A stretch of DNA of 64,000 nt from Microgenomates group bacterium Gr01-1014_5 (GTDB taxonomy: Bacteria > Patescibacteriota > Microgenomatia > UBA8517 > UBA10165), in NCBI GenBank assembly GCA_007376395.1, contig VMGE01000004.1, positions 6,431 through 70,430 of the forward strand. The letters are read 5' to 3'. The translations under genes and the position numbers were made by a program. This document shows positions 5,369 to 52,109 of the stretch, piece after piece; position 1 is the stretch's first letter; every line of letters begins with the position of its first letter. The notes beneath the pieces were generated by a model. The model did not search any database, was not told where the DNA came from, and saw nothing but the letters and a program-made list of their open reading frames with translations.

Positions 5369-6013
5369 TTTATGATGTGATTACAGAATAATGTATGGAT
5401 TTGCGAATGTAAAGTAATTTCGACCTTGACAGGGGCTGCTGCACTCATGTTAAAGTTAATTTTAGAATGACTCCGGGCGGTAAAGAAGCAATTCTTCCCA
5501 AAACCATCCTTTCTCTTGCTCCCGATATATACACCCCTGACCACGATACACCACAGGTGAGAATAGCTTGGGCTGGCGGCAGTTTTCTTATTGCTGTTAG
5601 ACACAGTTGCCCAGAGTATTGTGAGCCAAGCAGTCCCAAGTGTAGCGGAGTGGTAGTTGTTCCTGTAGCGTCAAGGGATATCGGTGATAAAAAGCGTTTT
5701 TGCGATAATTGCCAACAAGAGGTGCTTGTTAAAGGTGTCGGAGGGTTACGGATTGAAGCTGCTTCTATTCTTCAAGCCATGCAGAAAAACAGACTATAGA
5801 GAGTAATTTTGCATTCTTCTTGCCGGTTTGCTAAAATACTTACGTTTACACACATTCGGCCTGTAATGGTTCCTGCAGAGCGATCTGTTAATCCCCAGGA
5901 CGAATGGAGGCAAAAAGGAACCTTTTAAGTAATAAGTAACAAGCGAAAAGTAAGAAGTTAAATCGCTTTAGAGAATTCTTGTTACTTGTTGCTTATCACT
6001 TTTTACTATCATT

Positions 6014-6751
6014 ATGAATATATCACTTGAACAATTATTGGAAGCCGGAAGCCATTTTGGACATCAGGTTAGACGCTGGAATCCGAAAATGGCTCCTTAT
6101 ATTTACGCCCAGCACGACGGGGTGCATGTTTTTGACCTGACTAAAACTAAAGCAGGATTAGAAGAAGCGTGCGAAGCGGTTAAAAAAGCCGTTACAGAAG
6201 GGCAAGTTATTCTTTTTGTAGCTACAAAGCGCCAGGCAAAGGATATCGTCACCCAAGCGGCTCAAAGTGTCGGTATGCCGTTTGTCTCAACCCGCTGGTT
6301 AGGCGGAATGTTAACCAACTTTGATCAAATAAAGCGTTCTTTGCGTAAGCTTCAAGATCTTAAGAAATCCCGCGATTCTGGCGAATTTGATGAATACACT
6401 AAACACGAACGTTTACTTCTTGACCGTGAGATAGCAAGCCTCGAAAGAATGCTTGGGGGAGTGGCAAGTCTTACCAAGACCCCTGATATGTTGTTTGTGC
6501 TGGATACCCACGAAGAAGCGACGGCGGTTCGCGAGGCAAACAAGATAGGAATTCCGGTTGTGGGAGTGGTTGATACTAACGGAGATCCGCAGATTATCGA
6601 TTATCCAATTCCGGCAAATGACGACGCGGTCAAAAGTATTACACTGCTTGTTAACGCTATTACCGAAGCTGTTAAAGAAGGGCAGAAAAAGATTGAGATA
6701 GAGACAGAGAAAGAGAATAAAAAGAAGGCTAAGGAAGAAAAGAAACTCTAA
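6014..6751 (+). CDS. rpsB: 30S ribosomal protein S2
   Basis: N-terminus MNISLEQLLEAGSHFGHQVRRWNPKMAPYIY is the S2 signature. Lys/Glu-rich tail. Confidence 0.95.
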   Translation: MNISLEQLLEAGSHFGHQVRRWNPKMAPYIYAQHDGVHVFDLTKTKAGLEEACEAVKKAVTEGQVILFVATKRQAKDIVTQAAQSVGMPFVSTRWLGGMLTNFDQIKRSLRKLQDLKKSRDSGEFDEYTKHERLLLDREIASLERMLGGVASLTKTPDMLFVLDTHEEATAVREANKIGIPVVGVVDTNGDPQIIDYPIPANDDAVKSITLLVNAITEAVKEGQKKIEIETEKENKKKAKEEKKL

Positions 6752-6833
6752 GCGCTAAATCCTAAATTCTAAACAATATTTAAATTACAATTTTCCAAGG
6801 TTTAAAACATTAGTATTTACAATTTGTAATTTA

Positions 6834-6865
6834 TTTAGAGTTTAGATATTAGATATTAGAATTTT
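6834..6865 (+). repeat. tandem heptamer leader (TTTAGAG/TTTAGAT/ATTAGAT/ATTAGAA) abutting the tsf start codon
   Basis: Read directly: 7-nt periodic TTAGA units ending at the ATG. Confidence 0.6.
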
Positions 6866-7318
6866 ATGAAAATAAGTATCACTCAAATTAAAAAATTACG
6901 CTCCGAAACCGGTGCCGGAATTAATGATATTAAAAGTGCCCTTGAAGAGGCTAAAGGGGATGAGACAAAAGCAAAAGAGCAATTGCGGAAAAAAGGCTTT
7001 GAAAAAGCTGATAAAAAGGCTTCCCGCGAAATAAAAGCAGGCAGAGTTTTTTCATACGTTCATCACTCGGGAACAGTAGGGGCAATGATTACCTTGGGGT
7101 GCGAGACAGATTTTGTGGCTAAAACCGATGAGTTTCAACTGTTGGGACGCGAGTTGGCAATGCAGGCGGCCTCAATGAAGCCGGAAAACAAAGAAGAATT
7201 CTTAAAACAAGACTATATCCGTGATCCGCAAAAAACAATCGAGACTTTAATTAAGGAAGTTATAGCCAAAACCGGCGAAAACTGCCAGCTTCTTGACTTC
7301 AAACGCTTCGAGGTTTAA
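6866..7318 (+). CDS. tsf: elongation factor Ts (short form)
   Basis: N-terminal UBA-like ITQIKKLRSETGAGINDIKSALEEAKGD. Follows rpsB. Confidence 0.9.
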   Translation: MKISITQIKKLRSETGAGINDIKSALEEAKGDETKAKEQLRKKGFEKADKKASREIKAGRVFSYVHHSGTVGAMITLGCETDFVAKTDEFQLLGRELAMQAASMKPENKEEFLKQDYIRDPQKTIETLIKEVIAKTGENCQLLDFKRFEV

Positions 7319-7353
7319 TTTCACTTGACAGGCGTGTTATAGTAATAATTAAC

Positions 7354-7599
7354 ATGGGTTTATTTGAACGGTTTAGGAGAAAAGAAGAACCGGTAATGCA
7401 GTTTGTTAGGGTCCTGGAAGCATCTGGAGCGCCTGAGTTGTTACAGCTAAAGTCTGAAGAGATAAGCGGAAGAACTCACACAGGAACATCCGGTCAGTGG
7501 CTTGCGTGGCAAGAGTTAAGTTGGGATAAACAGCATTCAAGCGAGAGAGCTAAAAGACTTCGTGTAGAGGCAAGTGCCTATAATCTTTTGTATGGATGA
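7354..7599 (+). CDS. doubtful small ORF in the tsf-frr spacer, where pyrH normally sits
   Basis: 81 codons with no recognisable family. Overlaps the start of frr. Confidence 0.2.
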   Translation: MGLFERFRRKEEPVMQFVRVLEASGAPELLQLKSEEISGRTHTGTSGQWLAWQELSWDKQHSSERAKRLRVEASAYNLLYG

Positions 7600-8146
7600 A
7601 AATCAGATAAAACAGAGGATGCAGCAGGTCTTGGATTTGGTGCGCCAAGATATTGGCACTATAAGAACCGGTCGGGCGACTCCTTCTTTGGTAGAAGATA
7701 TTATGGTTGACGCCTATGGAGGAACTTCGAAACTGCGTATTCTGGAACTAGCTTCAATTTCCGCTCCTGATCCGCAAACCCTAATTATCAGCCCTTGGGA
7801 TAAGCAGGTCGTTGGCGAAATCCGCAAGGGGATTGAGGCGGCAAATACTGGATTAAGCCCGGTTATCTCAGGCGAAATTATCCGTATTAATTTACCGCCA
7901 ATGACGACTGAAGACCGAGAAAAATATGTCAAACTATTACATCAGAAACTCGAGAATGGACGAGTAATGGTGCGCCAGACGCGGCAAGATGCAAACCACG
8001 AAATAAAAAAGGCATTTGAAGATAAAAAGTCTTCCGAAGATGAAAAAGACAGGCGGGAAAAGCAGGTGCAGACGTTAACCGATCAGTTTATTGGTCAGAT
8101 TGAGACTTTAGGTATCACTAAAGAGAACGAACTTAGACGTATATAA
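7592..8146 (+). CDS. frr: ribosome recycling factor
   Basis: RTGRATPSLVEDIMVDAYG...NLPPMTTEDREKYVK is typical of RRF. The start is probably MDENQ at 7592 rather than the upstream ATG at 7574. Confidence 0.9.
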   Translation: MDENQIKQRMQQVLDLVRQDIGTIRTGRATPSLVEDIMVDAYGGTSKLRILELASISAPDPQTLIISPWDKQVVGEIRKGIEAANTGLSPVISGEIIRINLPPMTTEDREKYVKLLHQKLENGRVMVRQTRQDANHEIKKAFEDKKSSEDEKDRREKQVQTLTDQFIGQIETLGITKENELRRI

Positions 8147-8242
8147 ATTTCTAATTGACCTAATTTACCTAATTGATCTAAACATTAGGACGTTAGAGTT
8201 TATTTAGAAATTAGAGTAATTAGTAATTAGAATAATTTTTTT
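8147..8242 (+). repeat. TAATT/TTAGA-rich periodic leader (CTAATTGAC/CTAATTTAC/CTAATTGAT, then TTAGAGT...TAGTAAT TAGAATA) abutting the rseP ATG
   Basis: Read directly. Contains CTAATTGACCTAATT, the reverse complement of AATTAGGTCAATTAG seen at 54.79 kb and 63.55 kb. Confidence 0.55.
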
Positions 8243-9310
8243 ATGACTCCTTTTATTTTTCTAATAGTTTTGTCTATTTTAATATTTGTCCATGAACTTG
8301 GGCATTTTATTGCAGCGCGCCGCTCTGGAGTTAAAGTCGAAGAGTTTGGTTTGGGTTTTCCGCCCCGTATTTGGTCGCGAAGAAGAGGCGACACGGTTTA
8401 TTCGATTAACCTTCTCCCTATCGGCGGATTTGTCAGGCTTTACGGCGAAGAACATTCGGTAAATGTCGACAAGACCCAAGCTTATTATCACAAAGGGAGA
8501 TTGGCAAGGACAGCAATTGTTGTTTCAGGAGTATTGATGAATTTTCTCCTTGCAGTGTTTGCTTTTGCGGCAATTACCTGGTTTGTCGGCGTTCCCCGCG
8601 ATTTAGGGCATGTTAAGGTGCTAAGCGTTTCCGAAAACTCTCCAGCTTCTCAAGCCGGACTTTTGACAGACGACGTGGTTGTGGCGGTTGCAGGACAAAA
8701 TGTAGTCCAGACAAAAGAGTTTATCGAGACTGTAAATAACAGACGGGGTAAAGAAACAGAGCTCGTGGTTCGCCGCGGCTCGGAAGAAGTCAAACTTAAG
8801 GTAACCCCGAGGGAAAATCCTCCGCAAGGGCAAGGGGCATTGGGGGTTGGCATAACTTCGAGCGAAATTTACAATCCGCCTTTAGCTGAAAAACCCTTTG
8901 TTTCACTTTTTGAGGGCTTTAAACAAGCAACCTTTTGGGTGAAAGCTACGGTTTTGGGAATAACAGATTCGTTAGTGAAAGTCTTTGGCGGGAAAGCGCC
9001 TGAAGGCCTTGCTGGGCCAATTGGAATTTACCAAATCACAGAAATTGCCGCCGGGCAGGGGATTTTGGCTTTACTTTCTTTTATTGCCATACTTTCAGTC
9101 AACCTTGCGGTGTTAAATATTTTGCCGATTCCGGCACTTGACGGAGGAAGGTTGTTGTTTATCGGGGTAGAAGCGCTTTTCGGCAGACGAGTTTTGCCCA
9201 CCTTTGAAAAATACGCCCACAGAGTGGGGATGATAATTCTTTTGGCTTTAATTTTCTTAATCACCATAGGGGATATCAAGCGCCTCTTCTCCGGCGGATT
9301 TAATTTTTAG
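8243..9310 (+). CDS. rseP: RIP metalloprotease RseP (site-2 protease, M50)
   Basis: HELGHFIAAR in the first TM helix. PDZ region. C-terminal LDGG motif. Confidence 0.9.
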   Translation: MTPFIFLIVLSILIFVHELGHFIAARRSGVKVEEFGLGFPPRIWSRRRGDTVYSINLLPIGGFVRLYGEEHSVNVDKTQAYYHKGRLARTAIVVSGVLMNFLLAVFAFAAITWFVGVPRDLGHVKVLSVSENSPASQAGLLTDDVVVAVAGQNVVQTKEFIETVNNRRGKETELVVRRGSEEVKLKVTPRENPPQGQGALGVGITSSEIYNPPLAEKPFVSLFEGFKQATFWVKATVLGITDSLVKVFGGKAPEGLAGPIGIYQITEIAAGQGILALLSFIAILSVNLAVLNILPIPALDGGRLLFIGVEALFGRRVLPTFEKYAHRVGMIILLALIFLITIGDIKRLFSGGFNF

Positions 9311-9375
9311 GTGTTGACCCCGCTGAGCGGGGTTGACCCTTCGACTTCGCTCAGGGCTTGACAGCGCGTATTTTT
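9311..9375 (+). repeat. GC-rich palindromic element (terminator-like) after rseP
   Basis: CCCCGCTGAGCGGGG hairpin plus GACCCTTCGACTTCGCTCAGGGC, a motif shared with 60.83 kb and 63.01 kb. Confidence 0.6.
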
Positions 9376-9699
9376 GAGGAGTAAGCTATATATCAGTTTA
9401 CAAATTACCTCGGGATTGGTTTCGGGGTTTATTTTTGCGTCGCGAAGCAAAGCATAAAACAAGCTTCGCTTATGTTTGGTTAAAACAGCAATGAATAAAC
9501 AAGAAAATCTATATGTACACGTAGAACCATTAGTAGGATATGTATCCCCCGAAAACGGGGAGTATATTACAATGGCGGATATAAAAAGAGCCAGAGCTGA
9601 GCTTGCAATAACTGGTCCTACTCCTCGCGTAACACCACGACCAACGCCTTTTGACCCTGAATCTCTAAAGAAGAGACTGCCATCTCAATATATCCACAC

Positions 9700-9925
9700 T
9701 TGACTTCTGAGAGGGTGAGTATTATATTTATTTTAACGCAATGAAGGAGTTCCCAGCTTTTTCAAACCCTGAGTGAAATCGAAGGGGGAGCGGGCAAGGA
9801 TTAAGTAACTTGCACGGGTAAGCCCGAAATAGCAGTAATAAGTCACGACCAGGTTTATGGTTGTGTAAACAAAGGTGGTACCACGGCATAGCCGTCCTTT
9901 ACTAAAGGATGGCTATTTTTGTTTT
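9700..9925 (+). promoter_or_regulatory. putative T-box leader (promoter, Stem I region, canonical antiterminator/terminator)
   Basis: -35 TTGACT 9700-9705, -10 TATATT 9723-9728. AAAGGTGGTACCACGG 9871-9886 matches the T-box consensus with the 7-nt UGGUACC bulge. A1 helix AAAGG/CCTTT and A2 helix ACGG/CCGT. The competing terminator AGCCGTCCTTT..AAAGGATGGCT is followed by ATTTTTGTTTT. Confidence 0.5.
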
Positions 9926-37466: not shown

Positions 37467-37709
37467 ATGTATATTCAAAAACTCTATAAAAACGGCAATT
37501 CAGTGGCCGTTACCATACCTAAACAGGTTTTGAGAGAACTTGACCTTCGTGATGGCACAAAGGTTGTGGTCGAGAAGCGGGGACAAGAAGTAGTGCTTAA
37601 ATCTGCAAGGAAGGTTAAAGCTCCTGGAGTGGATGCAAAGTTTATGAAAATGGTTGACGAGTTTATGCTGGGACATGAAGACGTCCTTGCAGAACTTGCA
37701 AGAAAGTGA
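37467..37709 (+). CDS. AbrB/MazE/SpoVT-type antitoxin
   Basis: KNGNSVAVTIPKQVLRELDLRDGTKVVVEKRGQEVVL is a swapped-hairpin signature. Overlaps the toxin start by 4 nt. Confidence 0.7.
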   Translation: MYIQKLYKNGNSVAVTIPKQVLRELDLRDGTKVVVEKRGQEVVLKSARKVKAPGVDAKFMKMVDEFMLGHEDVLAELARK

Positions 37710-38095
37710 AAATCAATTACCTCAACGTTCCTCAGGTTTTGGCCATTCACGATCAAGCGGTAAGGAGGTTTGGCGGATCGTTTGGTGTTCGTGATATTGG
37801 TCTTGTTGAGTCGGCTATTGCCAGGCCGCGTGCGACCTATGATGGAAATGACCTTTATCGAGATATTTTTGATAAGACAGCGGCTCTTTTGCAATCTCCT
37901 TTAAAGAATCATCCCTTTATTGATGGCAACAAACGGACAGCCCTGTCTTCAGCTGGCATCTTTCTTAAAATGAATGGGTATAGTTTGCAAAACAAACATG
38001 AAGAAGAAGTGAAATTTGCAATTAAAGTCGATAATGAACACCTAAGTTTAGAACAAATTTCCTCCTGGTTAAAAAAGAATTCAAAGAAAAATTAA
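37706..38095 (+). CDS. doc: Doc (death-on-curing) Fic-fold toxin
   Basis: HPFIDGNKRTA motif. Confidence 0.8.
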   Translation: MKINYLNVPQVLAIHDQAVRRFGGSFGVRDIGLVESAIARPRATYDGNDLYRDIFDKTAALLQSPLKNHPFIDGNKRTALSSAGIFLKMNGYSLQNKHEEEVKFAIKVDNEHLSLEQISSWLKKNSKKN

Positions 38096-42956: not shown

Positions 42957-44066
42957 ATGGCTGGAAAACCAATAACATATGCATCAACAGGCGTCAATTA
43001 TGGCGCCATGGATCCTTTTAAAAGATTAGCTCAACTTCGAGCTAGAGCCACCGCTCGAAACCTTGAACGCTTTGGCATGAGAGAAGTAGAAGCAAGCCGC
43101 GGTGAATCAGCTTATGTTTGGGAAGAGCCTGATAGTTTTAGAGCATTTGTTATAGAAGGGTTAGGAACTAAAAATAGAGTTGCAGATGAAACGAGAAAAA
43201 TAACTGGTAAAACTTATTATGATGCGCTTGCTCAAGATACAGTTGCCATGATTGTAAATGACTTAATTGTGGTTGGAGCAGAACCCCAAGTAATTAATGC
43301 TTATTTTGCGGTGGGAAGTTCAGACTGGTTTTTAGACGAAGAACGGGCAAGAGATTTAGTTGAAGGCTGGGCTAAGGCGTGTAGTCTTGCCGGAGCAGTT
43401 TGGGGAGGTGGAGAAACACCTACATTAAAAGGAATTATAGAACCTGATACTATTGATTTATCTGGTTCGGCTGTTGGCATAATAAAGCCCAAAGAGCGTT
43501 TAACATTAGGAGAAAAATTAACTCCAGGTGACGCGATTTTATTGGTTGAAAGTAGTGGAATTCATGCAAATAGCTTAACTCTGGTCAGAAAAATTGCCTC
43601 AAAACTTCCTGATGGGTATGCAACTCCTTTACCGGGTGGAATTAGCTATGGTGAATCCATCCTTGCCCCTACACACATTTATGCAGGTTTGGTAAGAGAT
43701 TTATTTGAAGCGGAGATAGACATTCATTATATGGTCAATATTACAGGTCATGGTTGGAGAAAATTGATGAGGGCTACCAGAGATTTGAGTTATGTAATTG
43801 ACCAAATTCCAGAACCTCAGCCTGTTTTTGGGTTTATTCAAAAACACTCGGGTAATGACGATACTGAGATGTATGGAAATTTCAACATGGGAGCAGGTTT
43901 TGCAATCTTTTTACCGGAAAAGGCTGTTGGATTGGCTCAACAAATTGCTGTGGAAAACCATTCACTGAGTTCATTAAGGGCAGGTTGTGTCGAAGAAGGG
44001 CAAAAACAGGTTGTTATCCGACCCAAAAATGTAATTTTCAAAGGCGAGACACTAGGTGTTCGTTAA
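42957..44066 (+). CDS. purM: AIR synthetase (phosphoribosylformylglycinamidine cyclo-ligase)
   Basis: YASTGVNYGAMD, EGLGTKNRVA and DTVAMIVNDLIVVGAEP align with PurM blocks. Confidence 0.75.
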   Translation: MAGKPITYASTGVNYGAMDPFKRLAQLRARATARNLERFGMREVEASRGESAYVWEEPDSFRAFVIEGLGTKNRVADETRKITGKTYYDALAQDTVAMIVNDLIVVGAEPQVINAYFAVGSSDWFLDEERARDLVEGWAKACSLAGAVWGGGETPTLKGIIEPDTIDLSGSAVGIIKPKERLTLGEKLTPGDAILLVESSGIHANSLTLVRKIASKLPDGYATPLPGGISYGESILAPTHIYAGLVRDLFEAEIDIHYMVNITGHGWRKLMRATRDLSYVIDQIPEPQPVFGFIQKHSGNDDTEMYGNFNMGAGFAIFLPEKAVGLAQQIAVENHSLSSLRAGCVEEGQKQVVIRPKNVIFKGETLGVR

Positions 44067-44152
44067 GCTTCTAACATACTCCTCCATCAGTACCGCAAGA
44101 ACCGCCAAAGTTTTTTGTTGTCAAGAACTGGTTCAAATGAGATAATACGCGC

Positions 44153-44683
44153 ATGCAGCTAAAAAATGTTTTTGCCTTTATTGACGCCCAAAATTTAAAT
44201 CTTGGGGTACGCTCGCAGGGGTGGAAGTTGGACTGGCGTAAGTTCAGACAATATCTACGCCATAAATATGTTGTGGTTAAGGCATATCTTTTTATTGGTC
44301 AAGTAGCCGGAAACGAAGCTTTATACACCTTTTTACAGGAAAGTGGCTATATTTTAATTTTCAAACCCACGATGGAGCTACCCGATAAGATGGTAAAGGG
44401 AAATGTCGATGCGGAGCTGGTTTTACATTCGATGATACAGTATAAGAATTATAGTAAGGCCATTATTGTTTCAGGAGACGGAGATTTTCATTGTTTAGTT
44501 GAGTACTTAGATCAGCAAGGGAAACTTCTACACATTCTCACCCCAAATAGACACTATTCTGGACTTTTGAGAAAATTTAACCAACATGTAGTACGAGTAG
44601 ATCTGCTTAGAAGCTCTTTAGAATTAAGCGGAGCTTTTCTTCGAATAAAAAAGACCGAGATCAGCGGTCGGTCGAAACCTTAG
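44153..44683 (+). CDS. NYN/LabA-like PIN-domain protein
   Basis: FIDAQNLNL...IIVSGDGDF. Confidence 0.65.
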   Translation: MQLKNVFAFIDAQNLNLGVRSQGWKLDWRKFRQYLRHKYVVVKAYLFIGQVAGNEALYTFLQESGYILIFKPTMELPDKMVKGNVDAELVLHSMIQYKNYSKAIIVSGDGDFHCLVEYLDQQGKLLHILTPNRHYSGLLRKFNQHVVRVDLLRSSLELSGAFLRIKKTEISGRSKP

Positions 44684-44760
44684 GCTGCTTAGCTCGGTCA
44701 TCGTGATAATAGTATGATACTACAAATATATAGGAAAATCAAGTTAGAAGGGCTAGAAAC

Positions 44761-45069
44761 ATGAGTCTAAAAGTTGGGATAGTAGGTTTGCCAAATGTTG
44801 GGAAAAGCACGTTGTTTAACGCACTCTTAAAAAAACAACAGGCATATGTTGCGAATTTTCCGTTTGCTACCATTGAGCCGAATGTCGGTATTGTTCCGGT
44901 TCCTGACGCAAGGCTGGATGAATTGGCGCGAGTTGTCATGGCCTCTGAAAACATGGGAAGCGTACCACCTAAAGTTCCCGCAACCGTAGAGTTTGTTGAT
45001 ATCGCAGGCCTAATTGCCGGCGCACACAAAGGCGAAGGTTTGGGTAATAAATTTTTAACTCTAAATTAA
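44761..45069 (+). pseudogene. ychF: 5' fragment of a divergent ychF copy (encodes residues 1-98)
   Basis: [23 protein letters not shown]...[14 protein letters not shown] is about 80-85% nucleotide-identical to the start of full-length ychF at 47862. Similarity ends near 45055, followed by TLN*. Confidence 0.75.
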
Positions 45070-45095
45070 TTAGCTTTTATATTAAACAAAATTAT

Positions 45096-45338
45096 AGTGT
45101 CCTTGGAATTGATGGTGGGATAAATTTTACTACTGATCTGATTGATAAACTACCCTTTCCAGACTTTAACCCAAAAGACACAAAAAATAGAATTATTGAG
45201 TTAACTAATAATATTTTGAATTCTAAAGTTGAAGGTAAGGTAAAAATATTCAAATCTCAGATTGATGAATTGATTTACAAACTCTACGGCCTCACGTCGG
45301 AAGAAATTGCAATTGTGGAAAATTCAAATAATAAATAA
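45096..45338 (+). pseudogene. 3' remnant of an N6-adenine DNA methyltransferase (type IIG/BREX-like) gene
   Basis: Frame without a start codon encodes ...IDELIYKLYGLTSEEIAIVENSNNK*, the characteristic C-terminal LYGLTxEEIxxIE motif. Confidence 0.5.
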
Positions 45339-45343
45339 TTTTT

Positions 45344-45691
45344 ATGTCAAACAAATATGGCATTTCTGAAAAAGAATTAATAAAGATTAGGGAAAGAGAC
45401 AAGACTTGTGTGTATTGTCACAAAGTAATGATCGATCCTAGATCAAGGGGTAGGCGAATCGATTGGGCGACAATTGAACATTTAAACTTTATGCCCCCAT
45501 GGAACAACGCTTCTACTGTTGCAATCTGCTGTTGGAGTTGTAACTCAAGTCGTGGTAGCAAGAAATTGTTGGATTGGTTTAAAGGAGAATATTGTTTGAT
45601 TAAGAAAATAAATGAAAAGACTGTAGCCAAGCCCGTCAGAGAATTTATCAAAGTTCAAGTAAAATCGGTATTGACAATATTATCGAATTAG
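45344..45691 (+). CDS. HNH-type nuclease
   Basis: CVYCHK...IEHL...CCWSCNSSRG Cys/His pattern. Confidence 0.5.
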   Translation: MSNKYGISEKELIKIRERDKTCVYCHKVMIDPRSRGRRIDWATIEHLNFMPPWNNASTVAICCWSCNSSRGSKKLLDWFKGEYCLIKKINEKTVAKPVREFIKVQVKSVLTILSN

Positions 45692-45727
45692 TGTAATATC
45701 GATAACAAGGAAATACTAATTATCGAT

Positions 45728-46912
45728 ATGAATATTATTAATAATCGAGCAGGTATATACAAAAAAATCTTATCAGGGAATATTGCATACAAAGCATTTG
45801 TTCCTAATTTTTTGCCACTCTATCCGTCAATAAAGATGGATGACACGATTCAAATGCTATTATCTAACGCGGATAGAGCGATAGGTGGCCTTAATATAGT
45901 TACCGAACTATTGCCGGATTCAGATTATTTTATCCTTTCGTATTTAAGAAAAGAAGCTACTTTATCAAGCCAAATTGAAGGTACAAAAGCTACCTTTATT
46001 GATGTTGCTAAAGCAGAGGCAGGAGAGATAGATAGAGAAACTCCTCAGGATTACCCTGAAATCGTTAATTATATTAATGCTATAAATTATGGACTAAAAA
46101 GAATTCGTGAAGATGATTTTCCTATGGCATTACGTTTACTTAGAGAGATTCATGAAAGAATTTTAAAAGAAGTTCGTGGTCAATATAAAACTCCGGGAGA
46201 ATTTAGAAAATCACAAAATTGGATTGGCGGTGCATCTATCAACACAGCATCATATATACCTCCAACGGCTGAGGATATGAACGCAGCACTAGATAACTTG
46301 GAAAATTTTATGAACGACAAAAAACCAATGCCCGTACTAATTAGAATAGGATTAATTCATTCACAGTTCGAAACAATTCATCCCTTTTTAGATGGAAATG
46401 GTAGAGTTGGAAGACTCATGATTACTTTATTGTTATGCCATTATGGTTTGTTACCAAAACCAGCCCTTTATTTATCAGAGTATTTCAAAGCTTTTAGGAA
46501 TGAGTATTACGATAGATTAAACGCTGTACACGAAAAGGGAGATTTTGAAGGTTGGTTAAAATACTTTTTAGAAGGTGTTTGGTTGGTTGCAGAAGAGGCT
46601 ACAAGTACAGCTATGAAAATTAAAGCTTTAAAGGATAGAGATATTATGAAACTATCGGGTTTAAGCGCTCAAACTTCGCGTAATGCGATTAAATTACTTG
46701 AGAATTTATTTAGTAGCCCTATCATGACAGTGAAAGACGTTTCAAAATACACAGGATTGTCTTATGCTAACGCAAATAACCTTGTTAAAAAGTTAATAGA
46801 TTTAAAAATACTAGAACCTCTTGTTGAAAGAAAAAGGAACAGAGTTTTTGCTTATTCTGAGTATATGAACCTATTTAAAAATAGAGAATCTTATAAAAGA
46901 CAATTAAACTAA
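45728..46912 (+). CDS. Fic-family protein with C-terminal winged helix
   Basis: HPFLDGNGRVGRLM Fic motif. Upstream inhibitory-helix-like region. Confidence 0.85.
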   Translation: MNIINNRAGIYKKILSGNIAYKAFVPNFLPLYPSIKMDDTIQMLLSNADRAIGGLNIVTELLPDSDYFILSYLRKEATLSSQIEGTKATFIDVAKAEAGEIDRETPQDYPEIVNYINAINYGLKRIREDDFPMALRLLREIHERILKEVRGQYKTPGEFRKSQNWIGGASINTASYIPPTAEDMNAALDNLENFMNDKKPMPVLIRIGLIHSQFETIHPFLDGNGRVGRLMITLLLCHYGLLPKPALYLSEYFKAFRNEYYDRLNAVHEKGDFEGWLKYFLEGVWLVAEEATSTAMKIKALKDRDIMKLSGLSAQTSRNAIKLLENLFSSPIMTVKDVSKYTGLSYANANNLVKKLIDLKILEPLVERKRNRVFAYSEYMNLFKNRESYKRQLN

Positions 46913-46967
46913 TATGTCTAAATATTACCCTCCAAACAGAACACAGGAAGATATTTAGCTTCATAAC

Positions 46968-47003
46968 TGATAAAATACTCAAATGTCATTAAAAGTTGGG
47001 ATA
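46968..47003 (+). repeat. 36-nt copy of the ychF upstream region plus first 7 codons (att-like direct repeat)
   Basis: TGATAAAATACTCAAATGTCATTAAAAGTTGGGATA against TGATAGAATGATCAAATGTCATTAAAAGTAGGAATA at 47847-47882, 31/36 identical. Confidence 0.7.
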
Positions 47004-47143
47004 CGCCACACGCTATCCTATCTTTAGACTTCAGCTTCAAATTCTCACTTCCTGATCCTAAAAAGCAAAGGATTATTCTTCAGAGAGACGCTAAAGGTCG
47101 AATTTTACATTCAACTACTCAAACCTAAGCTTTTTGTCTAGTC

Positions 47144-47818
47144 TTATTCTGATATTTTCCAACGTTCTGTATCAACTAAAATTATTTTTGGTTGTTCGCT
47201 GGTGATTATGTATCCAAAATTGTCAGTATCAAAAACTCCCACTTCGTGTAATTTATCGACGATTTCATTATATTCCTTTTCCCAACTGGTTCCCCTCATT
47301 TCAAAACGGGGAGAATTTGATAGAGTTGGATAATATCTATATATCATATAGTTCTTTGTTGAATTAGCATCAGTATAATAAGCTAGTAATTGCTCTACTG
47401 GCAAATCTTCAGAATAGGCTTGCTTATAGCGTTTACTGGCTTCATTGACGATTCTAATTTGAGCTAATGGAATATTTGCCTCTAAGCGTCTCTTATACCA
47501 AGGTTCCCCTTTTTCGTTGTGGACGTCATAAGTAGAATATGCCATCTCTTTCACTAGAATTTCTGTATTACCAATTGAAAACTTTTCTACTCTCCTGGTT
47601 GATTTGCTTATTTCTTCTCCACCCTTATTTTTCCAATTAAGTGGAATTCCATTTTTTCGCCAAGGTGTTTCTGCTAATAATAGTTCCTGAAAATCTGCAG
47701 ATAAATCAGGTGGAAGAGATTTTAATACGAATAGATGTCCATCAGTGAATTTGACCCTTTCGAAATGAGGCCACTGAATCGTTGGAGTTGTATTATCGAC
47801 ACCCTCTGACATAATCAC
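47144..47818 (-). CDS. hypothetical protein (224 aa), cargo of the segment bounded by the 36-nt repeats
   Basis: ORF only. Possible kinase-like ILVDTERW. Confidence 0.4.
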   Translation of the reverse strand: MIMSEGVDNTTPTIQWPHFERVKFTDGHLFVLKSLPPDLSADFQELLLAETPWRKNGIPLNWKNKGGEEISKSTRRVEKFSIGNTEILVKEMAYSTYDVHNEKGEPWYKRRLEANIPLAQIRIVNEASKRYKQAYSEDLPVEQLLAYYTDANSTKNYMIYRYYPTLSNSPRFEMRGTSWEKEYNEIVDKLHEVGVFDTDNFGYIITSEQPKIILVDTERWKISE

Positions 47819-47861
47819 AATTATATATTAAATAATTGTGAAAATTTGATAGAATGATCAA

Positions 47862-48866
47862 ATGTCATTAAAAGTAGGAATAGTCGGTTTGCCAAATGTA
47901 GGGAAAAGCACATTGTTTAACGCTCTTCTAAAAAGGCAACAGGCATATGTTGCGAATTTTCCGTTTGCTACCATTGAGCCGAATGTAGGCATTGTTCCGG
48001 TTCCAGACAGTCGGCTCGACAAGCTCGCCGAGGTGATTAGTGATTCTTGGATAGTGAATGGTGAGAAGAAAAAACCACCCATTGTCCCCGCAACTGTAGA
48101 ATTTGTAGATATCGCAGGGTTAATTGCCGGAGCTTCCAAGGGCGAAGGGCTGGGGAATAAGTTCTTATCCCATATCCGCGAAGTTGACGCAATTTGCCAT
48201 GTTATCCGGCATTTCAAAGATAAAAATATTATTCAAACAGGAACTAATCCCAAAGAGGACTTTGAGATTGTCAAAACCGAATTAGATTTGGCAGACTATG
48301 AAATGGAAGAACAGCACAAAGAAAGAAATAAAGGAAAGGTTGACGAAAACCTACCCCTCTTTAAGAAGAAACCGATTTTAGTTGTGCTTAACGTTGACGA
48401 AGAGGATTTAATAAACGCAAAGAATATCGAGGCTGGGTTTGCGACTTCTGTGGGGCTTAATAAAGAGCAGGTGATTGCAATTTGTGCTAAAACTGAAGCG
48501 GAATTGGCGGATCTTTCAGAAGACGAACAAAAGGAATATTTAAGTGACTTGCGAATTGACAAACCGGGTTTGGAAAGGCTGGCGCAAAGCGCTTTTACCA
48601 CCCTTGGTTTAATTACGTTTTTAACCGCAGGAGAAAAGGAAGTGCGGGCTTGGACCATTCGGCGAGGTGCGACGGCTCTAGAGGCTTCCGGGGAAATCCA
48701 CACCGACTTTATGGCTAAGTTTATTAAAGCGGAAGTTGTGAAGTATGAGGATTTTGTAAATTCAGGAGGATGGAAGAAATCCCGCGATGTCGGTAAAGCC
48801 AGACTTGAAGGCAGAGATTATATCGTCCAAGACGGTGATGTGGTTGAATTTAAGATTGGCGCTTAG
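47862..48866 (+). CDS. ychF: ribosome-binding ATPase YchF (Obg-family GTPase)
   Basis: G1 [16 protein letters not shown]-terminal TGS domain (KARLEGRDYIVQDGDVVEF). Confidence 0.9.
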   Translation: MSLKVGIVGLPNVGKSTLFNALLKRQQAYVANFPFATIEPNVGIVPVPDSRLDKLAEVISDSWIVNGEKKKPPIVPATVEFVDIAGLIAGASKGEGLGNKFLSHIREVDAICHVIRHFKDKNIIQTGTNPKEDFEIVKTELDLADYEMEEQHKERNKGKVDENLPLFKKKPILVVLNVDEEDLINAKNIEAGFATSVGLNKEQVIAICAKTEAELADLSEDEQKEYLSDLRIDKPGLERLAQSAFTTLGLITFLTAGEKEVRAWTIRRGATALEASGEIHTDFMAKFIKAEVVKYEDFVNSGGWKKSRDVGKARLEGRDYIVQDGDVVEFKIGA

Positions 48867-48881
48867 TATAGTTAACTTGTT

Positions 48882-51116
48882 ATGCCAGAACCATCTGCCG
48901 ATACTCCGCAATTATCATTAAGAGACAGGCTCGAGAGAATTTTCCATAAACCAATGACGCGGAGAGAGGTTGTTGCCGCCGGAGCCGGGGCGGGTTTAAG
49001 TTTAATCGCAACAGGAGTTATTGGAGTCCCCAAATTTCTACAAATGGAGGCAAGCCTAGAAACTTCCCGGAAGGAAACAAACGAAGCAAGGGCAGGATTG
49101 GAAGAGGCTAAGGATCGGGTTGAAAAAGCTCAAGATCGGGCTCAACAAGCTCAGGAAGAAACAGCAGTTCTGCAAAAAGACTTGGAAAAAGTCAATCTTT
49201 CTGAGGAGAGAGCCAGGATTGTAGCTGATCAGGCCAAAATTGAGAAAATTGAGTCAGAAAAAGAGCGGGGTCTTGCATTAGAAGAAATGTCGAGATTATT
49301 CGTTAAAGATTATGATCAAAATGTAAAAGCATCAAATACATTGGTTGATACATATGTTTATGCTCAAGAGGTAAGAAAGTCGGGTGGTAATGCCAGTTCT
49401 TCAGGATTGGAATTGCGAATAGCCTTTGAAAGGGCATGGTTAATTCTTGAAAGAGGGGTTGCCTTGACTTCAGCTTGGCAAAGGCTAAAAGGGGAGAAGA
49501 ATCCTGTGGGTTTTGATAAAGACGGCAGATTGATAATTGAAGGAAAAAAACTGCAGGTTAACGAAGATGTGTGTGATTATCACCTAGCACTAAACCTTTT
49601 AAGGGCAAAAATAGATTTAGCAAGTAACAACGACTCTGACAAGCGGGCTTTGGCAGATGAAGATATTCAAAATCTCTTGCGTTTTATTGACATTCGTCCG
49701 AAAGTTGATATTGAAAAAACAGCATGGGCAGTTATGCCGCCTGACTGGGCAGGGGCTCTTGCGCGTTTTACGATCTTTTTAGACGAACGGAGAATTCCAC
49801 CACCCCAACTATATAGAATTTATCGCGATGTCCTCCTGGACGGGAGCCGATCCGGTGGGGGATTTTACGTCGGCGGTAAAGAGAAGTTCCCGCAGGCATC
49901 TCAGTTTTTACAATTGGGATCCCGTATGGATGCAACTGTTGTTTTCCACGAAGGGGGGCATTATATTGCTGACGCCTCTTCAATAAAAGAGAGATTAATT
50001 GGGGCCGGACGATTACAGGGGCATGCTGATTATCAGCGAGACTTTGATAGTCTGACAGCTAGAATGCAGAAAACTCTATTGTCTGCGGCTCGGAAGTCGG
50101 GAAAAAATTTAGGGGTATGGATGTCCAAAAGCTTTGTGAGCGCGTATGCCAGTTCCAATACAGCAGAAGATTTTGCGGAAACGTTTCGTGAGTTTTTAGG
50201 TTATGGCCCAGCTTTTAGAGAGAAGATAGAAAACCTGCGTAAAGAAGACCCTATTGCCGCATCTCTGCTTGAGGTTAAGTATGAATTTATGCGTGTTAAT
50301 GTGGCTCAGGGTGTTGAATATGGCATGAATGGTAGAAAAGCGGGTGCGCCTTTACTTTTTGAAGATAAAGAAAAGATAAAGGGTCGTAATAGTAAGTTAA
50401 ACTCACTTGCCTCATTACTTGAAGAAACGGGCAAGAGGTTTACAGAATATCTCTCCAGAGAGTCTGCTTTTAAAAATGCACAAGGTAAACTTGTGATACC
50501 GGAGTCTGATTTTGACCTTGATACCGCTCTGCTTGAGCCTAGAATTTGGAACGATATTATTGATTCGTTCAGAGGAGAAGTGATAGATGTATCTTCGGTT
50601 GTTCCTGTTCCTCATTATGAATTTCAAGGGGTAGCAGATATTGCCGTTAAATTAAAAAATGATAAAACAGTACGTTTAATTTTGGACACAAGAATCTCGG
50701 AAAGCGCCCAAAGTCTTATAAAATTAATTCCTGAATTTACAGACAAAGAGATCATTAAAACAAGAATGGTAAACAATGACCGCGGCCGTTTTTCTCAGGA
50801 GAGTTTGGATTATTTTAAGGCGCAAGGAGTTAAAAGCCCTCATGTTGCCTTTTCCGGAATATGGGAATCTTCTTATCCTCCAAGCCATGTCGACCGAGAA
50901 GGTGTGTTGTTTGTAAGATTTCAATATGAAAACGGGGAGTGGAAGCAAAAGCCGCTGGATGTACGCAGGACGAACCTTTTTATTAAGTCTGTGGCAGATG
51001 GGAAAGAAGAGGTTAGATCTTCCGGATATCACACTATAACTTTAGGAGAGAAAGATATCCTTTTTGGGTTTAATATAGACGGAAATCTTCGTGAGGTAAG
51101 AACCCACAATATTTAA
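48882..51116 (+). CDS. large hypothetical protein with twin-arginine-like N-terminus and an HExxH motif
   Basis: MTRREVVAAGAGAGLSLIATG signal-like segment. Coiled-coil. VVFHEGGHYIADA (HExxH) with a downstream AEDFAETFREF segment. Confidence 0.45.
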   Translation: MPEPSADTPQLSLRDRLERIFHKPMTRREVVAAGAGAGLSLIATGVIGVPKFLQMEASLETSRKETNEARAGLEEAKDRVEKAQDRAQQAQEETAVLQKDLEKVNLSEERARIVADQAKIEKIESEKERGLALEEMSRLFVKDYDQNVKASNTLVDTYVYAQEVRKSGGNASSSGLELRIAFERAWLILERGVALTSAWQRLKGEKNPVGFDKDGRLIIEGKKLQVNEDVCDYHLALNLLRAKIDLASNNDSDKRALADEDIQNLLRFIDIRPKVDIEKTAWAVMPPDWAGALARFTIFLDERRIPPPQLYRIYRDVLLDGSRSGGGFYVGGKEKFPQASQFLQLGSRMDATVVFHEGGHYIADASSIKERLIGAGRLQGHADYQRDFDSLTARMQKTLLSAARKSGKNLGVWMSKSFVSAYASSNTAEDFAETFREFLGYGPAFREKIENLRKEDPIAASLLEVKYEFMRVNVAQGVEYGMNGRKAGAPLLFEDKEKIKGRNSKLNSLASLLEETGKRFTEYLSRESAFKNAQGKLVIPESDFDLDTALLEPRIWNDIIDSFRGEVIDVSSVVPVPHYEFQGVADIAVKLKNDKTVRLILDTRISESAQSLIKLIPEFTDKEIIKTRMVNNDRGRFSQESLDYFKAQGVKSPHVAFSGIWESSYPPSHVDREGVLFVRFQYENGEWKQKPLDVRRTNLFIKSVADGKEEVRSSGYHTITLGEKDILFGFNIDGNLREVRTHNI

Positions 51117-51130
51117 AGAGAGTAATACAG

Positions 51131-51145
51131 CTTGCTAACCAGCCT
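51131..51145 (+). repeat. 15-bp direct repeat CTTGCTAACCAGCCT, left, overlapping the Fic stop codon
   Basis: 14/15 match to 52171-52185. Confidence 0.55.
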
Positions 51146-52109
51146 GGTAGTAAACACCTCTCGTCGTGCCTAGTTTTCGAATTAGCCGCTGGTCGGCTAA
51201 CTTTTTTAAGTCATAGCGTAAGGTTCTATCATTTACTTTGCTAAATCTTCTTTTAATTTGGTCAAAATTTACTAGCTTTTGCTCTTTTACGATGTTTAAA
51301 ATCTCTGCACGCCTAGGGAGTAAATAGTCTTCAGGGGTTAAATCTTTCTTTTTTAAGACTTGATCTTTTGCTTTATTTGCGCTCTCGGCTATTGCTTCAA
51401 GCATAAATTCGACATAATCTGTAACATCCTTTTGGCCTTCAGAGAGCATCGTATAGTATGTGCTTCTGTATTTATCGAGGTATTCCTCTATAGCTAAAAG
51501 CCCTTTCATTCCATAACCGCTCTTTTGTAAAGATAATTGGATTAATAATCTTCCGACCCTGCCATTTCCATCTAAAAAGGGGTGGATTTTTTCAAAAGAG
51601 TAATGGGCAAGTACAGCTCTAATTGGTACAAATTGTTCCTTTGGGCTGTTGGCAAACTTTATAAGCTTTTTTAGTAATCCTGGGATTTGTCTAGGAGGTG
51701 GCGGTATGTACACTGCAATACCGGCGGAGTTAAAAATAGCACTTACCTCGGTTCTGAATTTTCCGGGTGTATCGGTAAGTTTCAACATTGTGATTTTATG
51801 CATATCTAGAACGATACTTTGGGTAATATCGCGGAGCCCTTGTTTCTGAACCTTATTTAAGGCTTTTAAGATGTTAAACACTTCTTGCCTTTTTTGATCA
51901 GTTGAAGTTTTTCCTAACTCTTCAATTGTGAGCGGATTCCCCTCAATTCTTGCTGAAAAAAGGGAACTTTTTAACGTAGATTGGCGCCGGATATTGGTCT
52001 CTACTTCTGGTGGAATATTGATGGAGTCAATAACTTGTTTTGCAGCTTCAATTTGGCTTAATAACTCTGAAATTTTTGGGGTATGGATATACTTTGGAGG
52101 AATTAGCAT
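51135..52109 (-). CDS. Fic-family protein (second copy)
   Basis: IHPFLDGNGRVGRLLIQ motif. C-terminal wHTH. Confidence 0.8.
   Translation of the reverse strand: MLIPPKYIHTPKISELLSQIEAAKQVIDSINIPPEVETNIRRQSTLKSSLFSARIEGNPLTIEELGKTSTDQKRQEVFNILKALNKVQKQGLRDITQSIVLDMHKITMLKLTDTPGKFRTEVSAIFNSAGIAVYIPPPPRQIPGLLKKLIKFANSPKEQFVPIRAVLAHYSFEKIHPFLDGNGRVGRLLIQLSLQKSGYGMKGLLAIEEYLDKYRSTYYTMLSEGQKDVTDYVEFMLEAIAESANKAKDQVLKKKDLTPEDYLLPRRAEILNIVKEQKLVNFDQIKRRFSKVNDRTLRYDLKKLADQRLIRKLGTTRGVYYQAG

Follow-up and report, generated by a model that had tools for sequence, protein, structure and literature searches.

A ychF locus of a Microgenomates bacterium likely records two unrelated insertions, one of them the putative scar of a large serine recombinase

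The gene ychF of Microgenomates group bacterium Gr01-1014_5 lies in a stretch of 64,000 nucleotides of contig VMGE01000004.1 (the 64-kb window, whose numbering we use throughout), where 2.8 kb of AT-rich cargo DNA separates it from a truncated copy of its own 5' end. The GC content is 0.28-0.36 across 45060-47850, compared with 0.40-0.47 in the flanks. An earlier note on this DNA had described three copies of the ychF start flanking two cargo segments, A and B, and we found the copies where it had placed them, at 44761, 46968-47003 and 47862 (Table 1). Copy 1 is an open reading frame (ORF) of 102 amino acids (aa) at 44761-45069, whose homology to ychF spans 99 codons rather than the 98 first counted and stops at 45057. 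It shares 76% nucleotide identity with the corresponding part of the intact gene, copy 3 (47862-48167), with 88% matches between 44768-44918 and 47869-48019 and 80% between 44964-45057 and 48074-48167; the perfectly shared core, previously given as 49 nt, is 50 nt long. Copy 2 matches copy 3 at 31 of 36 nucleotides (46968-47003 against 47847-47882), that is, from position -15 to +21 relative to the ATG, and has an ATG of its own at 46983. Its 36-mer occurs once within the window, and the best score reached by 100 shuffled sequences was 24 of 36.

Table 1. Features at the ychF locus, in window positions
Feature	Position	Strand	Basis or remark
NYN/LabA-like gene	44153..44683	+	Pfam NYN 1.2e-15; native upstream neighbour of the ychF fragment
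ychF 5' fragment (copy 1), 99 codons	44761..45057	+	MMR_HSR1 2.2e-19; stop codon of the ORF at 45069
50-nt block identical to 47937-47986	44836..44885	+	the two ychF copies may have crossed over or undergone gene conversion here
Type IIG restriction-modification C-terminal remnant, 95 codons	45051..45335	+	PADLOC REase_MTase_IIG 2.8e-14
115-aa Cys-rich protein, possibly HNH nuclease	45344..45691	+	weak PADLOC PtuB match, 2.3e-4
SoFic-type Fic protein, 394 aa, C-terminal winged helix	45728..46912	+	Fic_N, Fic and MarR_2; PADLOC SoFic 3.4e-115
Putative attL-type scar of a large serine recombinase (copy 2)	46960..47086	+	nhmmer E 4e-22 against motif from related loci; alignment; 3-periodicity
224-aa protein, minimal protein-kinase-like fold (model)	47144..47818	-	AlphaFold2 pLDDT 90.8; Foldseek
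ychF promoter and codons 1-7, right-hand partner of the scar	47847..47882	+	31/36 to 46968-47003; resembles unoccupied attB
Intact ychF, 334 aa (copy 3)	47862..48866	+	MMR_HSR1 and YchF-GTPase_C

The extra ychF starts are real and not a product of assembly. The internal arrangement was recovered with 100% identity in two other assemblies, Logan SRR8863434 (44856-47966) and ERZ27284376 (45024-48037), and the arrangement is also present in a 124-kb contig at ENA; in addition, the 224-aa and 102-aa proteins are on record in the NCBI metagenome-assembled genome 'Microgenomates group bacterium Gr01-1014_5' (150-kb contig). A chimera, such as a collapsed strain mixture, which the earlier note had named as a possible refutation, is thus unlikely. 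The short contigs of the two other assemblies do end inside ychF copies, but both internal junctions read the same in them as in the window (100% identity), and the 50-nt exact repeat is precisely where one of them ends, a break that a k=31 assembler would be expected to make. Similarly, the 36-nt match of copy 2 might be put down to convergent promoter sequence, since part of it follows a family-wide promoter consensus, TGnTAAAAT-N6-ATG, but the match extends into a motif of 130 nt described below (E 4e-22), and shuffles stop at 24 of 36. Altogether, artefact or chance is a very improbable source of the arrangement.

We compared the locus with those of relatives by scanning one genome per species, which gave 80 ychF loci from Woesebacteria and Microgenomates with 47-71% ychF identity. 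The order downstream of the gene (ychF-rpsF-ssb, followed by rpsR) is conserved among them, whereas the gene content upstream of ychF is highly variable. A per-locus search for repeats of each genome's own ychF start found a perfect copy of 40 of 40 nt in locus L049 (positions -15 to +24), a 77-nt copy at 96% identity in L053 (-59 to +17) and shorter ones in L048 and L014. The DNA 3' of such short copies is conserved between genomes, and from it we built a hidden Markov model (HMM) of a ~130-nt motif, which returned 22 strong nhmmer matches (E <= 3e-8) in 17 of the 80 loci plus the window. Every match lies upstream of ychF and on its strand, often with several in one locus (three in L048, two or more in L014 and L013). 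In the window the motif is opened by copy 2.

The conservation of this motif is 3-periodic, as in coding sequence, and the encoded peptide reads ..RD-x-(H/L)F-TVPTFDFYFK-x-x-LPKANKERLIIERNxLGQI... A profile search with the peptide gave 146 database clusters from Microgenomates and Patescibacteria, of which the 120 listed are all 48-85 aa long, a finding that speaks against the peptide being the N-terminus of a longer gene. Other identities for the motif, namely a terminator, a small RNA, a Xer/dif site or attC, were rejected given its coding periodicity and a dyad that recombinase half-sites explain; an Rfam scan by E-value of 44000-49000 returned nothing. The peptide was likewise rejected as an independent fold, AlphaFold2 (AF2) being confident for one beta-hairpin only, and the JGI label 'YeeA' carried by one of its matches was without support. 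Among short database ychF proteins, two that were considered as further long fragments, P0171 and P0138, proved to be frameshifted genes.

The source of the motif is indicated by a family of large serine recombinases (LSRs). An LSR gene of 533-563 aa ends 32-58 nt inside ychF in 10 of the 80 species, assigned by tblastn, and in four further loci, L086-L089. The L086 protein (547 aa; Resolvase, Recombinase and Zn_ribbon_recom domains) has its stop codon 44 nt inside ychF and a match to an integrase family of PHROG at 2e-68; its gene follows an excisionase-like HTH_17 gene. L086-L089 carry a ~9.7-kb island with the LSR at the near end and a small motif ORF at the far end, and in L056, L039, L043 and L086 the motif likewise marks the far end of the element, 6-10 kb away. 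The full element of L086 (10176-18125; ~9.7 kb) holds about 17 small genes; apart from the excisionase-like gene and the integrase, none had a PHROG match, and no relative was found in IMG/VR. Judging from tblastn, loci form a series of decreasing LSR length, from full genes through 130-aa remnants (L054, L033) and ~50-aa remnants (L053, L018) to none. Counting LSRs, LSR remnants and scar motifs together, 27 of the 80 related species carry a trace of the family at ychF, and the hotspot proposed in the earlier note is thereby borne out.

LSR 3' remnants in L018, L053, L096 and L097 continue in frame into the conserved tail encoded by the motif. Integrated full-length genes instead read into ychF, in a frame other than that of ychF itself, and come to a stop 10-20 codons on. 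Taken together, these two endings suggest that the free enzyme has ~45 additional C-terminal residues, encoded by the P' arm of the attachment site. We infer that attP lies inside the integrase gene and that integration would exchange the last ~45 residues of the protein.

The probable point of exchange emerges from the symmetry of the site. Elements of the L086-like subfamily have GTTGGGA at -8 to -2 and, as its mirror, TCCCAAC at +34 to +40, so that the dyad is centred on +16/17, in the GG of Gly-6 (ychF codon 6); in L053 the identity between attL and attR ends at +16/17 too. In ychF, the equivalent box (CCAAAC) is closer to the dyad centre by 4 nt than that of the element. This shift resembles the 5-bp offset between attB and attP that Rutherford et al. 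described for LSRs, with the zinc-ribbon motif of the LI integrase shifted inward in attB (PMC3783163). Since the left half-site falls within ychF codons 1-6, which are near-identical in element and host, integration should regenerate an attB-like site, and tandem scars in which the intact element is the one closest to ychF, as in L086 and L043, would then be explained. An integron-type attC array was considered and rejected, because the short GTTGGGAT/ATCCCAAC dyad is the LSR site and the repeat has coding periodicity. At the same box, three loci (L042 ~8290-8320, L045 ~9390-9420 and L051 ~6100-6130) have a 25-30-nt insertion directly after TCCCAAC (e.g. ..TGTCCTGAGCACAGTCGAAGGAC..), common in part to L045 and L051.

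Comparison with these loci shows copy 2 to correspond to an attL-type scar, with a left arm at 46968-46999 (promoter and codons 1-6) followed by the P' arm, in the same register as the attL of the LSR-bearing elements L056, L039 and L086. The crossover would have been at the GG of 46998-46999. The P' arm appears as a coding remnant of the C-terminal LSR tail, in a frame open to 47125 and lacking an ATG; its outer box is degenerate (TCCTATC, 47016-47022), and the left arm is without GTTGGGA. As the earlier note had reported, the window lacks an integrase: a tblastn search of the 64 kb with the LSR was negative, and Pfam scans of about 50 ORFs gave no recombinase. Copies 2 and 3 match from -15 to +21, and LSR-bearing relatives encode the ychF start within the 3' end of the LSR, which together imply that the element supplies promoter and first codons while the displaced start stays at the far junction. 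The earlier proposal that insertions replace the promoter and first codons of ychF thus fits both this pair and the LSR-bearing relatives. The gene in its present form has an extended -10 promoter, TGATAGAAT, a type found next to ychF in 39 of 65 LSR-free loci and in 0 of 14 loci with an LSR or a remnant.

From scar to ychF start, the unit of cargo B measures 879 bp and retains one gene, coding for the 224-aa protein that the earlier note had left as unknown. It has no Pfam match and no sequence match in the Protein Data Bank (PDB), and in a collection of 5.8 billion proteins it matched only itself; an exhaustive search gave 26 distant representatives. The AF2 model resembles minimal protein kinases, with WaaP (6dfl), PRPK/Bud32, IRAK4 and CK2 as the best Foldseek matches at template-modelling (TM) scores of about 0.4-0.46.

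The likely course of this insertion, event B (46999-47877), would begin with an LSR-carrying mobile element integrating at the GG of ychF codon 6. The left half-site of its attP would consist of the last LSR codons, which also carry a replacement ychF start, and the right half-site (P') would encode the further ~45 integrase residues. On the far side, integration would leave the old ychF promoter with codons 1-6 joined to the P' tail, the attL-type motif seen as copy 2; on the near side, the remainder of ychF would gain the new start. Later loss would have removed the integrase and almost the whole element, leaving a scar with a degenerate P' box and the kinase-like gene. For cargo B, 'decayed element' is accordingly the better of the two options that the earlier note had put forward.

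Copy 1 has a different appearance. Its differences from copy 3 number 17, 13 and 41 at codon positions 1, 2 and 3, and 34 codons differ synonymously only, compared with 15 non-synonymous ones whose replacements are grouped in a variable loop. This bias indicates that copy 1 diverged as part of a working gene and not as a decaying local duplicate. Over the first 150 nt, copies 1 and 3 are each other's best match (86.7%, versus at most 80.7% to 67 other species), and their 50-nt identical run exceeds the longest run in all 2211 inter-species pairs (maximum 44). These results suggest that the two copies come from related but distinct lineages, with the 50-nt tract as a candidate mark of crossover or gene conversion between them.

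The surroundings of copy 1 are those expected of a native gene. It is preceded by a Shine-Dalgarno sequence, GAAGGG, as opposed to the extended -10 leaderless arrangement of the att-type copies, and lies 77 nt from the NYN gene; in L015 an NYN-like ORF stands 89 nt upstream of ychF, and the upstream intergenic regions of copy 1 and L015 can be aligned. The motif HMM found no P' motif after copy 1. The open frame of the type IIG remnant starts exactly where the ychF homology ends (junction 45057/45058), so that codon 99 of ychF runs head-on into a type IIG gene that is itself truncated, and this points to a single illegitimate joint. Together, the native context, the missing P' arm and the type IIG fusion argue that copy 1 is not an attL but another kind of recombination junction. 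Probably, it is the original ychF start of this genome, cut at codon 99. Of the earlier suggestion of two tandem insertions at one att-like site, at least two separate junctions are therefore upheld, whereas only copies 2 and 3 form an att-type pair.

The cargo that follows copy 1 (cargo A) opens with the remnant that had been read as the 3' end of an N6-adenine methyltransferase gene. It is a C-terminal remnant, although of a type IIG restriction-modification enzyme: its last ~95 residues match positions 1150-1246 of 1247 (the last ~97) of the PADLOC profile, and neither Pfam nor NCBIfam gave a match. For the proposed HNH nuclease of 115 aa, the weak PtuB match speaks in favour, while Pfam, NCBIfam and PDB sequences yielded no HNH family and only weak unrelated matches. 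The Fic protein was correctly recognised and is of SoFic type, matching positions 5-359 of 361 of the PADLOC profile; its NCBIfam SoFic score of 148 is below the cutoff of 550. It is a candidate single-gene defence system. In a metagenome scan with SoFic, the donor of cargo A was not found, in that no type IIG-HNH-SoFic block turned up elsewhere (best relative 66%). In the same scan, the only Fic-ychF adjacency was in L117, where a SoFic homologue ends 10 nt before ychF; the Fic-ychF neighbourhood that the position of copy 2 implies for the donor thus exists elsewhere. Three Fic-domain genes occur within a 15-kb part of the window (37706-38095, 45728-46912 and 51135-52109), the two long ones being 31% identical.

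One could instead take copies 1 and 3 as attL and attR of a single element comprising cargo A and B, which would have targeted ychF near codon 99, carried a 99-codon surrogate 5' end and lost its integrase. The truncated copy upstream, the intact gene downstream and the xenologous nature of the two would all be accounted for, and in L068 a second long fragment, a 30-codon xenologous ychF start (5640-5732) without P' motif, lies 4.3 kb upstream of ychF. But fragments of 99 and 30 codons do not share a crossover point, copy 1 is bounded on the right not by an element end but by a truncated type IIG gene fused to it, and the identical 50-nt block sits in the middle of the repeat instead of at its edge. 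Given also the native context of copy 1 and the lack of any integrase or integrase remnant in cargo A, we hold such a codon-99 element to be distinctly unlikely. The L068 fragment is followed by a cargo of its own (5774-9901) with a radical-SAM-like protein of 335 aa (CNFRCWYC), a P-loop-like one of 209 aa, a Ham1-like one of 187 aa and one of 605 aa, which could be a nucleotide-modifying defence cluster.

The origin we favour for copy 1, event A, is recombination at the 45057/45058 junction between the resident ychF and DNA from a fairly close relative. The incoming DNA would have comprised the type IIG tail, the HNH-like gene, SoFic and a ychF 5' end, that is, a putative small anti-phage defence islet. 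On its homologous side, the 50-nt identical tract would represent the crossover or conversion; on its illegitimate side, ychF codon 99 would have been joined to about residue 1150 of the type IIG gene, leaving the native 99-codon start stranded beside its NYN neighbour. Both a Campbell-type single crossover of a circularised fragment and homology-facilitated illegitimate recombination would fit as the mechanism. Such processes share three features with copy 1: a homologous anchor, here ychF; an illegitimate joint at which two genes are cut short; and an incomplete copy of the anchor left behind. In the present case they are proposed from the sequence, and neither a donor nor an empty-site allele was found.

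Overall, we consider it likely that the locus records two unrelated insertion events at the ychF start of a Woesebacteria/Microgenomates genome, an LSR scar (event B) and a recombination junction (event A), and the instance in the window appears to be a fossil, not an active element. Several results weigh against this interpretation. For event A, neither GC content at third codon positions nor the correlation of identities across 79 relatives was informative as to which ychF copy is native. An empty-site allele of this species was not found, the nearest database ychF N-terminus being 87% identical over the fragment. For event B, the crossover position derives from symmetry and from where the repeats stop matching, with no recombination seen, and an IMG/VR scan with the LSR alignment revealed no episomal form of the element. 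Furthermore, in units without LSR, including that of the window, the ychF-side arm is of promoter type and not the LSR-coded arm expected after integration and deletion of the integrase; in L049 the two arms are identical at 40 of 40 nt. Finally, the tail ORF of an LSR-less cassette common to L048 and L085 has a ratio of non-synonymous to synonymous change (dN/dS) of 0.21 (pS 0.585, pN 0.204), unexpected for a dead scar; that of its neighbour gene is 0.13. This ORF of ~57 aa runs intact across the att scar in both loci (L048 8983-9162, L085 10001-10171) with no adjacent LSR, and the one part that AF2 models with confidence is a beta-hairpin at residues 37-51. Its product may be a functional peptide.

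These last observations would be more readily understood if cassettes moved in trans, with integrase-less units being captured at the ychF start by LSRs encoded elsewhere, so as to form an integron-like array whose newest member is next to ychF; each unit would consist of a P' tail ORF and a promoter-type arm together with one gene or a few. Compact single-gene units are indeed found repeatedly: three stand in tandem in L048 (721, 821 and 1023 nt), a single one precedes the full element of L086, and L085, L028, L071, L077 and the window (879 nt) have one each. Both of their arms are of promoter type, the tail ORF is under purifying selection in the cassette just described, and regeneration of the attB-like site in codons 1-6 would make repeated capture possible. 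On the other hand, no circular or free cassette was seen and the window has no LSR, while LSR remnants of graded length at several junctions are what decay predicts. Shared cassette proteins are also less conserved than ychF (77% versus 89% and 40% versus 71%), which fits old vertical inheritance, and in the window the P' box is degenerate and the tail ORF has no ATG. A promoter-type arm joined to P' is moreover attL-like, and LSRs normally do not recombine such sites with attB (PMC3783163). Capture in trans therefore strikes us as unlikely, if with some claim to attention.

A bolder version would make the ychF start a serine-recombinase gene-capture platform, in which codons 1-6 fix the left half-site and an attB-like site is renewed each time, integrase-less single-gene P' cassettes with the ~57-aa ORF are stacked in trans, and that ORF is a detachable integrase tail acting as a peptide that controls the direction of recombination. 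This remains speculative and, in our estimate, improbable. Cargo of another kind was seen in L053 (6759-7877), where an LSR-scar-bounded unit contains a tyrosyl-tRNA-synthetase-like ORF that starts at the HIGH motif and is N-terminally short; it adjoins a DHH phosphoesterase gene and a 2H-phosphoesterase-like gene, so that this cargo looks housekeeping.

The proposed LSR system resembles known serine-integrase systems in its enzyme and the architecture of its site. As in the prophages and islands of serine integrases (Listeria A118/LI, phiC31, Bxb1, SPbeta), the family LSR has Resolvase, Recombinase and zinc-ribbon domains, and attP would be a pseudo-palindrome of ~50 bp with its outer box further from the centre than in attB (PMC3783163). 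An excisionase-like small gene beside int and integration into a host gene are shared as well. In contrast to these prophages, the attP of the ychF family would lie within the 3' coding region of the integrase, whose last ~45 residues would be swapped; the target is the first six codons of ychF, so the element must supply a promoter and start codon; and scars accumulate in tandem at ychF, the instance in the window appearing inactive.

In Myxococcus phage Mx8, attP lies within the integrase gene intP. Archaeal 'suicidal' tyrosine integrases of SSV type likewise have the att site inside the integrase gene (PMC8371274). In those systems, as proposed here, integration splits or re-tails the integrase gene and leaves a coding piece of int at the far junction, but they use tyrosine recombinases, whereas the ychF family is one of serine recombinases in which only the C-terminal tail would be exchanged and the tail outlasts integration as a small ORF on which selection can continue to act. 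Integration at a 5' end with supply of a new promoter and N-terminus is known from SXT/R391 in prfC. A pneumococcal prophage has its attB beside ychF, with int immediately upstream of ychF, and its defective remnants stay and can affect ychF expression (PMC8637289). In both, as at the present locus, element-borne 5' sequence keeps the host gene functional; the recombinase family and the phylum are different, and the pneumococcal site is intergenic rather than in the first codons.

The tandem, mostly single-gene units, with a repeated recombination-site-like element beside a fixed site and often without an integrase, also call to mind integron cassette arrays and clusters of attC sites lacking an integrase (CALINs). 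Unlike integrons, the family has neither an IntI tyrosine recombinase nor attC hairpins with R and L boxes, and what is repeated is a 130-nt LSR tail derived from coding sequence; Pfam scans found no tyrosine recombinase domain in the window. Full-text literature searches returned no paper combining Patescibacteria, prophage and serine recombinase and none linking ychF to a serine integrase site. We know of no description, for serine integrases, of an attP inside the integrase gene with exchange of the C-terminal ~45 residues. The integrase family named here would thus be one of large serine recombinases whose own 3' end spans attP, and it is the combination of attP in the LSR gene with a target at the 5' end of ychF that would be new.

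Beyond the locus itself, ychF has a second variable spot on its 3' side. The gene is nearly adjacent to rpsF in most of the 80 relatives, but in the window 48882-52109 lies between the two, encoding an Mx1-like metallopeptidase of 744 aa and, on the minus strand at 51135-52109, another SoFic-like protein (PADLOC SoFic 7e-59). Elsewhere in the window, 1911-4118 encodes a 735-aa TraG/TrwB-like type IV coupling ATPase (Pfam TrwB_AAD_bind and TraG-D_C).

Serine integrases are tools of genome engineering, and a family whose natural target is conserved and already mapped, and whose tail would be removable, could prove useful. The proposed exchange of the tail on integration suggests that the enzyme carries its own switch between two states, free and integrated. 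To our knowledge, almost nothing is known about how members of the Candidate Phyla Radiation (CPR/Patescibacteria) acquire accessory genes. In about a third of the sampled Microgenomates species, ychF codon 6 and this LSR family would account for a variable region that includes defence genes and genes of unknown function.

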